64,000 nucleotides of DNA from an uncultured Pedobacter sp. (GCA_966210515.1 CBIHLM010000003.1:14215-78214), one strand, 5' to 3'. Positions 42,160 to 47,164 are shown, counted from the first letter of the stretch. Notes: generated by a model not told the origin, from the letters alone. Numbers and translations are program-made.

Positions 42160-43344
42160 CTAATTCAGCTTTTGATAAGTTCTCCACCACAAGTCAGGCA
42201 TCTCTCCTGAAACGGCAATTTGGTAATCTTCGTATCTGCAGGGCACTAAATGATAGCGTTCATTCTTCGAAGTTCCAACCGGATAAGGCACTTGCATCCA
42301 CCATCGATCAGTTTTTTTACTTTTTACAAATACCAGCTCATGTGTATTATCTTTTAATGATGCCCTATAAATAAGGTATTGCGATTTTGGCTGCAAAGGA
42401 AAATCCTTTTTACGATGATAAACCCCATCCACAAAATACCAGATCATTTGAGCCAGTAGCATCGCCGTTTGCCCGTTGGTATCATACGCAGGATTAAACT
42501 CATAAAAACCTATTGAGGTCAGTTTGTCATTCAGACCAGCATAGCGACAGATCTGACAAGCCTCCTCTCCATAAAAGCCGTTAGGTCCTGCATTGGCGTT
42601 ACCTCCGGCATCTGAAGAACGAATGGCCGCCATATCAAAACTTAAAAGATTGGCATTTCGGATTATAGGTTCGGAAACTGAAATATTACCCGAAAACTCG
42701 CCGAGCCGATGAACATCGAACAATAATTTCTCCATAACTCTTAAACTGTCCTGATTTACATAATAGGTTTGATAACCGATATTGCTGTAGTTAAACAGAT
42801 AGTTAGGCTGATGAAGTAAAATTTTATTGAGATAAGATGTTGAACCTGTTTCTATAGTATTATCGTGTACCGAATCATCCAGATCGAACTTAGGATCAAC
42901 GATAACCAGATCAACTTTCTGCTCTAAAGATTCGTATGCGAGATACTGAGCATAGGTCAGATCCTGCCCACCTCCTATAATCAACGGCACGATATCTTTC
43001 TTAACCAGTTCGGCTACAACCGTTTTTACCGCGAAATAAGTATCGGAAACGGTATTTCCGGCCTTAATATTTCCTAAATCGACCATCCGGATATTATATG
43101 TTCCCTGGTAAAGGGAGTATAGTTTCTCGCGAACATAATCCGGCCCCAGAGCACAACCCTGGTTGTCAATGGAATTTCTATCTTCAAGAACGCCTATGAT
43201 GGCGATATCAAAAGTTTGGGTCTCCAGATCGGGGAATTCATGTATATAAATCTCGACCTGCGATCCAAGTTGACTTGTAAAAAACACCTCACGAACACTT
43301 ACTTTATTTGAATCTACAGGTGAAAAAAAATCGGCTAAAGACAT
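42160..43344 (-). CDS. Arginase/formimidoylglutamase-fold protein with degenerate metal site
   Basis: Ureohydrolase scaffold (VREKLY, DLGNI, GGGQD, PNGFYGEEACQI, EFNP); start reassigned to ATG 43344. Confidence 0.8.
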   Translation of the reverse strand: MSLADFFSPVDSNKVSVREVFFTSQLGSQVEIYIHEFPDLETQTFDIAIIGVLEDRNSIDNQGCALGPDYVREKLYSLYQGTYNIRMVDLGNIKAGNTVSDTYFAVKTVVAELVKKDIVPLIIGGGQDLTYAQYLAYESLEQKVDLVIVDPKFDLDDSVHDNTIETGSTSYLNKILLHQPNYLFNYSNIGYQTYYVNQDSLRVMEKLLFDVHRLGEFSGNISVSEPIIRNANLLSFDMAAIRSSDAGGNANAGPNGFYGEEACQICRYAGLNDKLTSIGFYEFNPAYDTNGQTAMLLAQMIWYFVDGVYHRKKDFPLQPKSQYLIYRASLKDNTHELVFVKSKKTDRWWMQVPYPVGTSKNERYHLVPCRYEDYQIAVSGEMPDLWWRTYQKLN

Positions 43345-43536
43345 TTGATTTATTTGATATGAAACAGGCCAGGACAAATTGATCCCTGAATCAAAGATCA
43401 AATTAAAATGTTAATTTCAGTAATGAAACTTGTTTTTCATGCGATCCACCTACTGTTTATCCAGCCTTATTAATGATTAAACAAACCTTGCTTAAAAATT
43501 ATGTAAGTTTGAATCCAATTTCAAAACCCATCTTGG

Positions 43537-44508: not shown

Positions 44509-44554
44509 CAGGTTTACTACCTTTGCAGCAATTTAAGGAACCTTCCCAACAATA

Positions 44555-45847
44555 ATGAAGAATTACTACATCATAGATTTCGATAGTACGTTTACCCAGG
44601 TTGAAGCATTAGATGAGTTGGCTCGAATTTCATTAAAAGATAATCCGAACCGCGAAGCTATTTATAAAGAAATTGAAGATCTTACCAATGCCGCCATGGA
44701 AGGCAGACTGTCTTTCCGCGAAAGCTTAACTCAGCGGGTTAAAGTTCTTCAGGCAAATCGCGATCATTTAAAGTTACTAGTAAGCCGTTTAAAAAAACTT
44801 GTCTCTTCATCATTTTCAAGAAACAGGACCTTTTTTAAAAACCATGCGGATGATGTTTTGATAGTTTCCGGTGGATTCAAAGAGTTTATTACACCCGTAG
44901 TTCTTCCCTATCATATTAAAAAAGAAAATATTTACGCAAATACCTTTTTGTTCGATGTGGACGGCAATATTGTTGGATACGACGACAGCAATCCTCTTTC
45001 TGAAGAAGGCGGAAAAGTTAAGCTCTTAAAACAGCTGAAACTTGAAGGAGATATTTTTGGTATTGGTGATGGTTATTCAGATTTTCAGTTAAAAGAATCG
45101 GGCTTAATTCAGAAGTTTTATGCATTTACTGAAAATATAGCCCGTCAGAGCATCCTTGAAAAAGCAGATCATGTTACTCCGAGCTTTGACGAGTTTTTAT
45201 ACATCAATCAATTACCCCGGGCAATTTCTTACCCTAAAAACAGAATTCTTTGTCTGATTGTGGGAGATGTCCCGGAAGAAACCATGCAAATCTTGAAAAA
45301 AGATGGATTCTCGATCCGTCATAAAACAAGCTTTGAGGAAAAATACGTCGCCGATGTGGGAATGCTTATATTAGCTAATGGTGAAAAAATTGAAGATGAG
45401 CAATTAAAACAAGCTGTTAAGCTGAAAACAATAGGCTATTTAGGAAACAGCAAACAAAAACTTTCGCATAAAATTGCGACTGAGATGGGCATTGTTATTT
45501 TCGACGACCCTAAACACAATCCGAGAAATGCGCAGTTCATTTCAAAGCGCGTAGCGGACTTCATAAACAGAGGTGATACTTATTTAAGTTCAAACTTTCC
45601 AAATCTGCAATTACCGAAAGTGGCACATGCTCATCGCCTTATCCACATTCATAAAAACGTACCCGGAATAATGGCCCAGATAAATCAGATCTTCGCCAAT
45701 CACAAAATAAATATTGTGAGTCAGTTTTTAATGACTAATTCACACATCGGTTATGCAATCACCGATGTGAGCGACCAGTACGATAAACAAGTTTTAAAGG
45801 AGCTGAAAGAGATTTCAAACACGATTAAATTTAGAATATTGTATTAA
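44555..45847 (+). CDS. HAD-IB phosphoserine phosphatase fused to a vestigial SerA substrate-binding lobe and an ACT domain
   Basis: HAD motifs DFDST, VSGG, GGK and GDGYSD; then SYPKNRI..GIVIFDDPKHNPRN joined directly to RVADFINRG..NFPNLQLP..HRLIHIHKNVPG..IKFRILY (SerA C-terminus and ACT). Confidence 0.85.
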   Translation: MKNYYIIDFDSTFTQVEALDELARISLKDNPNREAIYKEIEDLTNAAMEGRLSFRESLTQRVKVLQANRDHLKLLVSRLKKLVSSSFSRNRTFFKNHADDVLIVSGGFKEFITPVVLPYHIKKENIYANTFLFDVDGNIVGYDDSNPLSEEGGKVKLLKQLKLEGDIFGIGDGYSDFQLKESGLIQKFYAFTENIARQSILEKADHVTPSFDEFLYINQLPRAISYPKNRILCLIVGDVPEETMQILKKDGFSIRHKTSFEEKYVADVGMLILANGEKIEDEQLKQAVKLKTIGYLGNSKQKLSHKIATEMGIVIFDDPKHNPRNAQFISKRVADFINRGDTYLSSNFPNLQLPKVAHAHRLIHIHKNVPGIMAQINQIFANHKINIVSQFLMTNSHIGYAITDVSDQYDKQVLKELKEISNTIKFRILY

Positions 45848-45907: not shown

Positions 45908-47164
45908 ATGTATTCCAGAACTCACCTCCACATCCTTTCATTTACACTGAAATGGTTTTTGTTAGCCGGAGTTGTGGGAATTATATCTGGAAGCGCCTCT
46001 GCATTTTTCCTGATAGCATTAGATTGGGTTACTAACTACAGAGAAACTACATCTTGGATCTATTATCTTTTACCCGTAATAGGCTTGCTGATAGGGCTTT
46101 TGTACCACTACTTCGGTAAAACGGTAGAAAAAGGGAATAATCAGATAATCGACGAAATCACACAGCCTCAAAAACGGCTTCCCTGGCATATGGCGCCGCT
46201 GGTGTTAATCGGTACACTTCTAACACATTTGGGCGGAGGATCGGCAGGACGCGAAGGCACCGCAGTTCAAATGGGAGGCTCTCTCGCTGATCAGCTGAAT
46301 CATATATTTCCCTTTAATGCCCGCGACAGAAAAATACTGCTCATTTGCGGAATCAGCGGAGGCTTCGCATCCGTATTCGGAACACCACTAGCAGGAACAG
46401 TTTTCGCACTCGAGGTTTATATCATCGGAAGGATGCGATATGAAGCCCTGATTCCATCACTATTTGCAGCGATTATTGCCGACATTATTTGCTCAACGTG
46501 GGGAGCAACACATCTTCATTATTCCATTCAATCGGTAACAGACATCTCATTCCAAAACCTTCTGATTGCAGTACTAGCGGGTGTTATGTTTGCCTTTGCA
46601 GGATCGATGTTCAATAAATTGACCCCGTTTCTCAAAGGATTTTTTGATAAAATCCCTTACCCGCCTTTACGTCCTTTTGTGGGAGGAATTATTGTTTTAC
46701 TGTTTCTTTTCGGCCTGAACGACTTCAGACTTGCCGGCCTTGGAATACCGACTATCGTTGAAAGTTTTACCAGCCCACAGCCGGGTTATCTTTTTTTTCT
46801 AAAGATTTTATTGACGGCCATTACTCTTAGTTCAGGCTTTAAGGGTGGCGAGGTGACTCCGCTCTTCTTTATAGGCGCAACATTAGGAAGTGCACTTTCC
46901 ATCCTCCTGCCCTTACCAACAGATCTATTAACAGCCATGGGCTTTGTCGCTGTGTTTGCTGCTGCAGCAAACACTCCGCTGGCCTGCGTTTTCATGGGCA
47001 TTGAGTTGTTTGGAAGTCAGCATGCTCTGTTTATCGCGATTGCATGTTTTATTGCGTATCTGTTTTCCGGACATAGCGGAATCTATAGTTCACAGATTAT
47101 TGGCTCGCCTAAGCATCTTCTTTGGACCCGCCACAAGGGGAAAAATCTAAAAGATGTAAAATAA
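45908..47164 (+). CDS. eriC: CLC family anion transporter, fluoride/H+ antiporter (CLC-F) type
   Basis: GNNQI, GREGT and GEVTP signatures, matching the CLC-F clade consensus GNNLI/GREGT/GEVTP. Confidence 0.85.
   Translation: MYSRTHLHILSFTLKWFLLAGVVGIISGSASAFFLIALDWVTNYRETTSWIYYLLPVIGLLIGLLYHYFGKTVEKGNNQIIDEITQPQKRLPWHMAPLVLIGTLLTHLGGGSAGREGTAVQMGGSLADQLNHIFPFNARDRKILLICGISGGFASVFGTPLAGTVFALEVYIIGRMRYEALIPSLFAAIIADIICSTWGATHLHYSIQSVTDISFQNLLIAVLAGVMFAFAGSMFNKLTPFLKGFFDKIPYPPLRPFVGGIIVLLFLFGLNDFRLAGLGIPTIVESFTSPQPGYLFFLKILLTAITLSSGFKGGEVTPLFFIGATLGSALSILLPLPTDLLTAMGFVAVFAAAANTPLACVFMGIELFGSQHALFIAIACFIAYLFSGHSGIYSSQIIGSPKHLLWTRHKGKNLKDVK

Follow-up and report, generated by a model that had tools for sequence, protein, structure and literature searches.

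What becomes of a dehydrogenase when its coenzyme-binding domain is gone and only its flanks remain attached to a phosphatase? The question is raised by a gene in the 64,000-nucleotide stretch of DNA analysed here (the window), which comes from an uncultured Pedobacter sp. Positions 44555-45847 of the plus strand hold a single uninterrupted ORF of 430 aa with zero internal stops, in which a HAD phosphatase precedes parts of the serine-pathway enzyme SerA. The first-pass annotation, made from the sequence alone, had proposed that an in-frame deletion converted a bifunctional SerB-SerA fusion into a phosphoserine phosphatase under serine feedback.

Domain layout and the missing NAD-binding domain

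The gene is divided into the following segments.

44555..45847, +, whole gene, 430-aa HAD phosphatase plus SerA remnant, stop codon included (ORF; hundreds of full-length 430-aa orthologues)
44555..45199, +, predicted HAD-IB phosphoserine-phosphatase domain, residues 1-215 (profile and structure matches, conserved residues, Foldseek of the AF2 model)
44576..44584, +, codons of catalytic D8/D10
45200..45244, +, linker, residues 216-230, equivalent to the SerA N-terminal tail, with the conserved AISYPKNRI motif
45245..45532, +, remnant of the SerA substrate-binding lobe, residues 231-326 (SerA ~11-112), catalytic motifs eroded
45532..45533, +, deletion junction N326/A327, site of a 192-193 aa NAD-binding domain in long fusions
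45533..45628, +, post-Rossmann helix and connector, residues 327-358 (SerA ~306-337; alignment, AF2 helix 325-339)
45629..45844, +, ACT domain, residues 359-430 (SerA 338-410; PF22629, 50.6 bits)
45650-45652, 45656-45658 and 45710-45712, +, codons of the H366, N368 and N386 triad

The HAD domain is intact, as the first-pass annotation had it, with all HAD and phosphoserine-specific residues kept. HAD-IB/SerB profiles match residues 4-183 (TIGR01488, 62.1 bits against a cut-off of 45) and motifs I-IV are present (D8-F-D10-S-T, S105, K154, G171-D172-G-Y-S-D176), the catalytic D8, D10, S105, K154, D172 and D176 being retained in 49-50 of 50 aligned fusion proteins. The best PDB match of the N-terminal part is Francisella 3kd3 (E 2.5e-26), human PSPH matching at E 2e-20, and Foldseek aligns the HAD part of the AF2 model with both at target-normalised TM scores of 0.76-0.80. 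In the alignment to 6hyy the substrate residues E17 and R61 fall opposite their PSPH counterparts, and both are kept in 49/50 sequences; we take them to be the equivalents of human Glu29 and Arg65, which hold the carboxylate and amine of phosphoserine. Standalone HAD-IB phosphatases (Francisella 3KD3, human PSPH 1NNL/6HYY) share the fold and the catalytic and substrate residues but, unlike the protein studied, are ~220 aa long and carry no appendage.

The rest of the protein derives from SerA. When residues 227-430 were aligned alone, residues 228-326 corresponded to E. coli SerA 8-112 and residues 332-430 to SerA 311-410; what is missing is thus SerA ~113-305, which comprises the nucleotide-binding domain and the first turn beyond it. 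PF00389, the substrate lobe of 2-hydroxyacid dehydrogenases, matches residues 234-324, residues 326-430 align with PRK11790, the profile of E. coli-type SerA, over positions 306-410, and the closest PDB entries for the C-terminal part are the SerA structures 27ws, 3k5p and 1psd. By profile and by alignment to E. coli SerA, residues 327-358 are the C-terminal piece of the substrate-binding domain. At 45532/45533 the lobe runs directly into the post-Rossmann helix, followed by a complete ACT domain, in agreement with the earlier placement of the joint near 45530. The 430-aa protein is devoid of GxGxx[GA] motifs, bearing out the reported lack of GxGxxG, and a profile search of the same protein gave no match to PF02826.

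An AF2 model computed from a 32-sequence alignment has a mean pLDDT of 79.6 and a pTM of 0.51, the arrangement of the domains relative to each other being unreliable. It comprises the HAD domain, a linker predicted to be disordered (218-230, pLDDT < 50), a five-strand alpha/beta domain of five beta-alpha units (residues 231-317, pLDDT 80-93), a long helix (325-339) and an ACT domain of beta-alpha-beta-beta-alpha-beta order. Foldseek comparison with E. coli SerA chains (query-normalised TM ~0.42, rmsd ~4 Å) fits a modelled remnant and ACT domain that superpose as a single unit on SerA.

All three substrate-lobe motifs first described as eroded sit in the right alignment columns, with ILANGE for GIRSKT, GYLGNSKQK for GAFCIGTNQ and FDDPKHNPRN for FNAPFSNTRS, and the catalytic Arg240, Glu269 and His292 of SerA have been deleted. 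The PRK11790 score is 144.5 bits against a cut-off of 404. Since the catalytic residues are deleted, the substrate motifs replaced and the profile score below its cut-off, the name 'D-3-phosphoglycerate dehydrogenase' is wrong for this protein. Its dehydrogenase half is not competent, and the protein descends from the SerB-SerA family while no longer being bifunctional.

Conservation and origin of the short form

The short form is not an accident of one assembly. Protein databases hold 6455 homologues at E <= 1e-5, and the best 120 of the 6455 are all 430-445 aa long, 74-100% identical and from Pedobacter, Arcticibacter, Daejeonella, Hufsiella and other Sphingobacteriaceae. They are entered in the databases as 'HAD-IB family phosphatase', as 'phosphoserine phosphatase' or, in error, as 'D-3-phosphoglycerate dehydrogenase'. 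With each species represented by one genome, a relative was encoded in 530 genomes; the top 80 all have the short form and belong to Sphingobacteriaceae, Pedobacter heparinus among them, and the short form occurs in 20/24 other genomes of the same family, down to 51% identity. The deletion is thus family-wide rather than private to one strain, as the first-pass annotation required. An assembly error or strain-private deletion was rejected because the same 430-aa form and junction recur in hundreds of independent genomes.

Between same-genus orthologues pN/pS ranges over 0.009-0.055 in the HAD domain, 0.023-0.078 in the dehydrogenase remnant and 0.011-0.040 in the ACT domain, most pairs being saturated at silent sites; in the least saturated pair (L016/L017) the values are 0.019, 0.067 and 0.011, respectively. 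Strong purifying selection acts on each of the three segments, and the low ratio in the remnant therefore indicates a constrained domain and not junk. A decaying pseudogene was likewise discarded, the frame being intact and pN/pS lying at 0.01-0.08 in every segment.

In other families of the Bacteroidia the homologous ORFs are ~600-680 aa long and are matched in two pieces that cover query residues 1-326 and 326-430 and are separated by ~192 residues. The intact ones are full SerB-SerA fusions that retain GIRSKT, GAFCIGTNQ, NAPFSNTRS, GYGNIG, SRG (Arg240), E269 and PH292; those in Kordia, Tenacibaculum and Sporocytophaga are annotated 'phosphoglycerate dehydrogenase'. These fusions of the Bacteroidota (~626-669 aa) have the same order of HAD domain, SerA N-terminal tail, lobe, post-Rossmann helix and ACT domain as the protein studied, and the AISYPKNRI linker motif is common to short forms, long forms and standalone SerA. 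The protein studied differs in that the 192-193 aa NAD domain is absent, RSKT, GAFCIGTNQ and NAPxSNTRS are eroded, and R240, E269 and H292 are gone. Alignment to the full-length fusions (626-669 aa) places their 192-193 extra residues exactly at N326/A327, so that the in-frame loss from a SerB-SerA fusion, put at ~200 aa by the first-pass annotation, amounts to ~193 aa. From the known topology of SerA we infer that the deletion was tolerated because the two chain crossings that excision of the NAD domain links lie side by side in the fold. As a separate observation, the Foldseek match PDB 6iuy, a Dunaliella glycerol-3-phosphate dehydrogenase, also has a phosphoserine-phosphatase-like HAD joined to a dehydrogenase and is an independent example of such a fusion.

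Among intact long forms the lobe is the best-conserved segment (64-69% identity, against 44-54% for HAD and 62-68% for ACT), whereas short or degenerate forms share only 20-32% of the lobe with intact ones, together with 48-66% of HAD and 57-65% of ACT. For the short form compared with intact fusions the lobe has fallen to 20-26% while the ACT domain has stayed at 58-64%, and HAD identity between the fusions and the protein studied is 42-55%. Lobe residues still conserved across distant short forms are of the fold type only (Gly, hydrophobic).

The distribution of the forms was assessed in 201 Bacteroidia genomes sampled evenly. In this set the short form was found only in families f1 (6/6) and f11 (3/3, one frameshifted), and long forms occur in 13 other families. 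Some of the long forms keep the NAD domain yet lack Arg240 and/or His292 and have eroded substrate-lobe motifs (P0125, P0126, P0127, P0129, P0133 and P0135, and genome copies in f9, f45, f55 and f62); such degenerate forms lie on many independent contigs. In a maximum-likelihood tree of 50 fusion proteins, from which the NAD-domain columns had been removed, the short forms of Sphingobacteriaceae cluster with degenerate long forms of f9 (support 98/88, starred), and the f11 short forms fall inside another starred long-form clade (100/99), beside degenerate f45/P0135 forms. Long fusions with apparently dead active sites are thus the nearest relatives of the short forms.

At least 3 changes of form are required by the starred branches of this tree. 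The two families also have different junctions, ...PKHNPRN/AQFISKR in f1 and ...FASPTT/LAGK in f11, and the f11 protein has long forms as its best database matches, ahead of Sphingobacteriaceae short forms, once the members of its own small clade are set aside. Monophyly of all short forms is rejected by the AU test (p = 0.020, 31 rows), whereas that of the f1 and f11 short forms alone is not (p = 0.104). At least two independent excisions, each after loss of catalysis, are likely although not proven. That loss of catalysis came before the deletion of the NAD domain is probable because the short forms have dead long fusions retaining this domain as their closest relatives. Of the original proposal that the deletion turned the dehydrogenase into an appendage, the excision stands; the deletion as the converting step does not, since fusions already dead still have their NAD domain. 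The reverse polarity, an ancestral short form into which the NAD domain was later inserted, was rejected, long forms being collinear with standalone type II SerA and short forms nesting inside long-form clades.

Two further sequences depart from the general pattern. P0138, a 426-aa short form from a metagenome, has an intact AIRSKT lobe motif though its NAD domain is gone and may represent a more recent, separate deletion; its placement in the trees is poorly fixed. In one f11 genome (L110, G119:C1:2463100-2465000) a frameshift breaks the short-form gene into two ORFs, 115 and 345 aa long, the first piece being 103 aa when counted from its own start codon. The same genome yields no standalone SerA orthologue at E <= 1e-70, and its serine pathway may be decaying, or a sequencing error may be responsible.

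Serine pathway of the genome and the family

The genome from which the window derives is 99.8% complete and contains no other SerB-like HAD gene, and DUF1015/SerBK, a published alternative to SerB (PMC13759103), was sought in it and is absent. Its 2-hydroxyacid dehydrogenases are four in number, with lengths of 310-343 aa. The one encoded directly after serC, of 316 aa and without an ACT domain, is therefore assigned as a type III SerA lacking ACT, so that SerA is indeed supplied by another gene, as had been supposed. The gene studied is not linked to serC-serA, and its product is the sole carrier of a SerA-type ACT domain in the genome.

SerBK/DUF1015 serves the same pathway step with an unrelated fold, probably that of a kinase run in reverse, and is encoded directly after serC-serA. 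Among 25 genomes of the family, 14 have the short form only, 4 DUF1015 only, 7 both and 0 neither, each Sphingobacteriaceae genome searched thus having at least one. In the four without the short form serC, serA and DUF1015 stand in a row; the naive chance that all four would carry DUF1015 is ~0.03, related genomes not being independent. Co-loss of the gene with serC-serA was considered and rejected, the four genomes retaining serC-serA and having DUF1015 instead.

These occurrences bear on the identity of the phosphatase, which is predicted to be a phosphoserine phosphatase acting at the last step of serine synthesis, with a competent-looking HAD half. The domain could instead act on another phosphate ester, its link to serine being historical only. 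The whole protein scores below the curated cut-off of the TIGR00338 serB equivalog (66.3 against 144.15 bits), the nearest structure, 3kd3, is named merely 'phosphoserine phosphohydrolase-like', and the conserved neighbours, an SDR epimerase gene and ilvE, are not serine genes. Nevertheless, the phosphoserine-holding residues of human PSPH and M. jannaschii PSP align here and are conserved, the nearly complete genome offers no second SerB candidate, and every family genome has the short form, the DUF1015 substitute or both, leaving a different substrate with very little credibility.

Across the 201 Bacteroidia, standalone SerA orthologues are found in 157. Three families lacking them (f2, f13 and f57) have catalytically intact fusions only, and every degenerate or deleted form occurs in a family possessing standalone SerA. 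This is the distribution that redundancy-driven decay predicts, the number of families being small.

One Sphingobacteriaceae genome with the short form has DUF1015/SerBK split into ORFs of 266 and 208 aa (G016:C1:3573817-3574733), which may be a decaying redundant copy. At L021 (G037:C5) and G037:C5:32241-35262 an intact 632-aa SerB-SerA fusion is followed on the same strand by one intervening gene and then serC, standalone serA and DUF1015, so that a single neighbourhood contains two dehydrogenases as well as two candidate enzymes for the phosphatase step.

At 56-60/61 Sphingobacteriaceae loci the SDR epimerase gene, the gene studied and ilvE follow one another in this order. In the window a 418-aa ClC-type chloride-channel-like gene (45908-47164, +) lies between the gene and ilvE; it is present at the same spot in only 16/61 loci while the flanking order is almost always kept, so it looks like a lineage-specific insertion. 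The divergent upstream neighbour (42160-43401, -) encodes an arginase-fold protein and is syntenic in 60/61 loci. The -7 promoter consensus of the Bacteroidota is TAnnTTTG, which is fitted by TACCTTTG at 44518-44525 (+), ~30 nt upstream of the start codon, and judging from this element the gene may have a promoter of its own. Sigma-70 promoter and terminator scans returned nothing above shuffled background.

The ACT domain and possible control by serine

The ACT domain is complete, as first described, with PF22629 well above its cut-off (27 bits) and the serine-binding residues intact. In E. coli SerA L-serine is held by His344, Asn346 and Asn364' (Grant 2018, PMC6300728), and PGDHs that are no longer sensitive to serine have altered ACT residues (PMC6300728). 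By alignment H366, N368 and N386 map to E. coli H344, N346 and N364; alignment A1 shows no variation at these three positions, and they are retained by 47-49/50 proteins, including intact, dead and deleted forms. The Gly336-Gly337 hinge of E. coli is unconserved, even in intact fusions. The protein thus shares with E. coli SerA (type II; PDB 1PSD, 1YBA, 2P9C) the lobe fold, the ACT domain and the His344/Asn346/Asn364 triad, and differs from it in having no nucleotide-binding domain, no catalytic residues and no conserved Gly-Gly hinge, and in being fused behind a phosphatase.

The retained triad and the pathway context suggest that the remnant probably acts as a serine sensor for the phosphatase. 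With moderate confidence, we favour a phosphoserine phosphatase carrying a leftover SerA scaffold, in which L-serine would inhibit the phosphatase through the ACT domain. The ancestor would have been a bifunctional SerB-SerA protein of ~630 aa, whose fused dehydrogenase would have become redundant in lineages also possessing a separate ACT-less serA next to serC. This dehydrogenase would have lost its catalytic residues first, and the NAD-binding domain would then have been excised at two hinge crossings that are neighbours in the fold, producing a compact, non-catalytic substrate-lobe scaffold with an intact ACT domain. Two ACT domains would pair as in SerA, L-serine would bind at their interface through H366/N368/N386, and a changed domain or oligomer arrangement would lower phosphatase activity. 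The standalone SerA has no ACT domain, and serine feedback would therefore fall on the last pathway step; as this step is irreversible, control there would still stop net flux.

A precedent for an ACT-bearing phosphoserine phosphatase is SerB2 of M. tuberculosis, a HAD enzyme that L-serine regulates by way of an oligomeric transition (PMC10564941, PMC4270767). SerB2 is built differently (ACT-ACT-PSP), with a tandem N-terminal ACT pair that is not derived from SerA and with no dehydrogenase remnant, whereas the protein studied has a single C-terminal ACT domain of the SerA type. Chains 5is2 and 3p96 of SerB2 match the HAD part only, and the resemblance is convergent, not homologous.

Several considerations speak against serine control. 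The Gly-Gly hinge of E. coli is not conserved, and the AF2 model shows no route from the ACT domain to the HAD active site. In SerA the ACT signal targets the cleft between the lobe and the NAD domain, which is gone here, so that a new coupling would have had to evolve, and the ACT domain could have been kept for dimerisation alone. The main rival reading accordingly sees in the remnant only a structural or oligomerisation scaffold for folding or dimerisation of the phosphatase, with serine exerting no more than ordinary product inhibition. ACT-ACT contacts form one of the two tetramer interfaces of SerA, the NAD domains making the other contact (PMC6300728). In the AF2 model, the inter-domain arrangement of which is uncertain, no path or contact from the ACT domain to the HAD active site is seen, and the restriction of lobe conservation to fold-type residues would also be expected of a scaffold. 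Dimerisation alone, however, needs no H366/N368/N386 triad, and since standalone ~220-aa phosphatases of the same HAD subfamily are common, the HAD domain needs no appendage; we therefore consider a pure scaffold unlikely, though far from negligible.

The ACT domain might also sense serine or another amino acid and act in trans, for instance by docking on standalone SerA or SerC. Type III PGDH enzymes, to which the ACT-less standalone SerA belongs, are not feedback-regulated (PMC6300728), and the only SerA-type ACT domain of the genome resides on the protein studied. SerA subunits, however, meet via their NAD and ACT domains; the remnant lacks the former and the standalone SerA the latter, so the two have no known interface in common, and the gene is unlinked to serC-serA, which makes action in trans improbable. 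In its most specific version, which is more improbable still, the dead lobe and ACT domain would be a docking module recruiting the ACT-less SerA, perhaps also SerC, into a serine-sensitive complex, and a relic on the last enzyme of the pathway would then regulate the first enzyme in trans.

A full-text literature search for a published description of the short-form architecture or its evolution found none, and the GapMind papers do not discuss this architecture; the sequences are already public, under generic or wrong names. Many entries named D-3-phosphoglycerate dehydrogenase cannot be that enzyme and should be counted as SerB only in pathway reconstruction. The family offers a natural example of one half of an enzyme becoming a probable regulatory appendage, with three stages alive in related bacteria, namely the intact bifunctional fusion, the fusion with a dead dehydrogenase and the NAD-excised form, the last of which probably arose more than once. 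If serine controls the phosphatase, as we favour, Sphingobacteriaceae would regulate serine synthesis at its last, irreversible step and not at its first. In mammals serine synthesis is likewise controlled at the last step, via product inhibition, and in M. tuberculosis the same control point is served by unrelated ACT domains.
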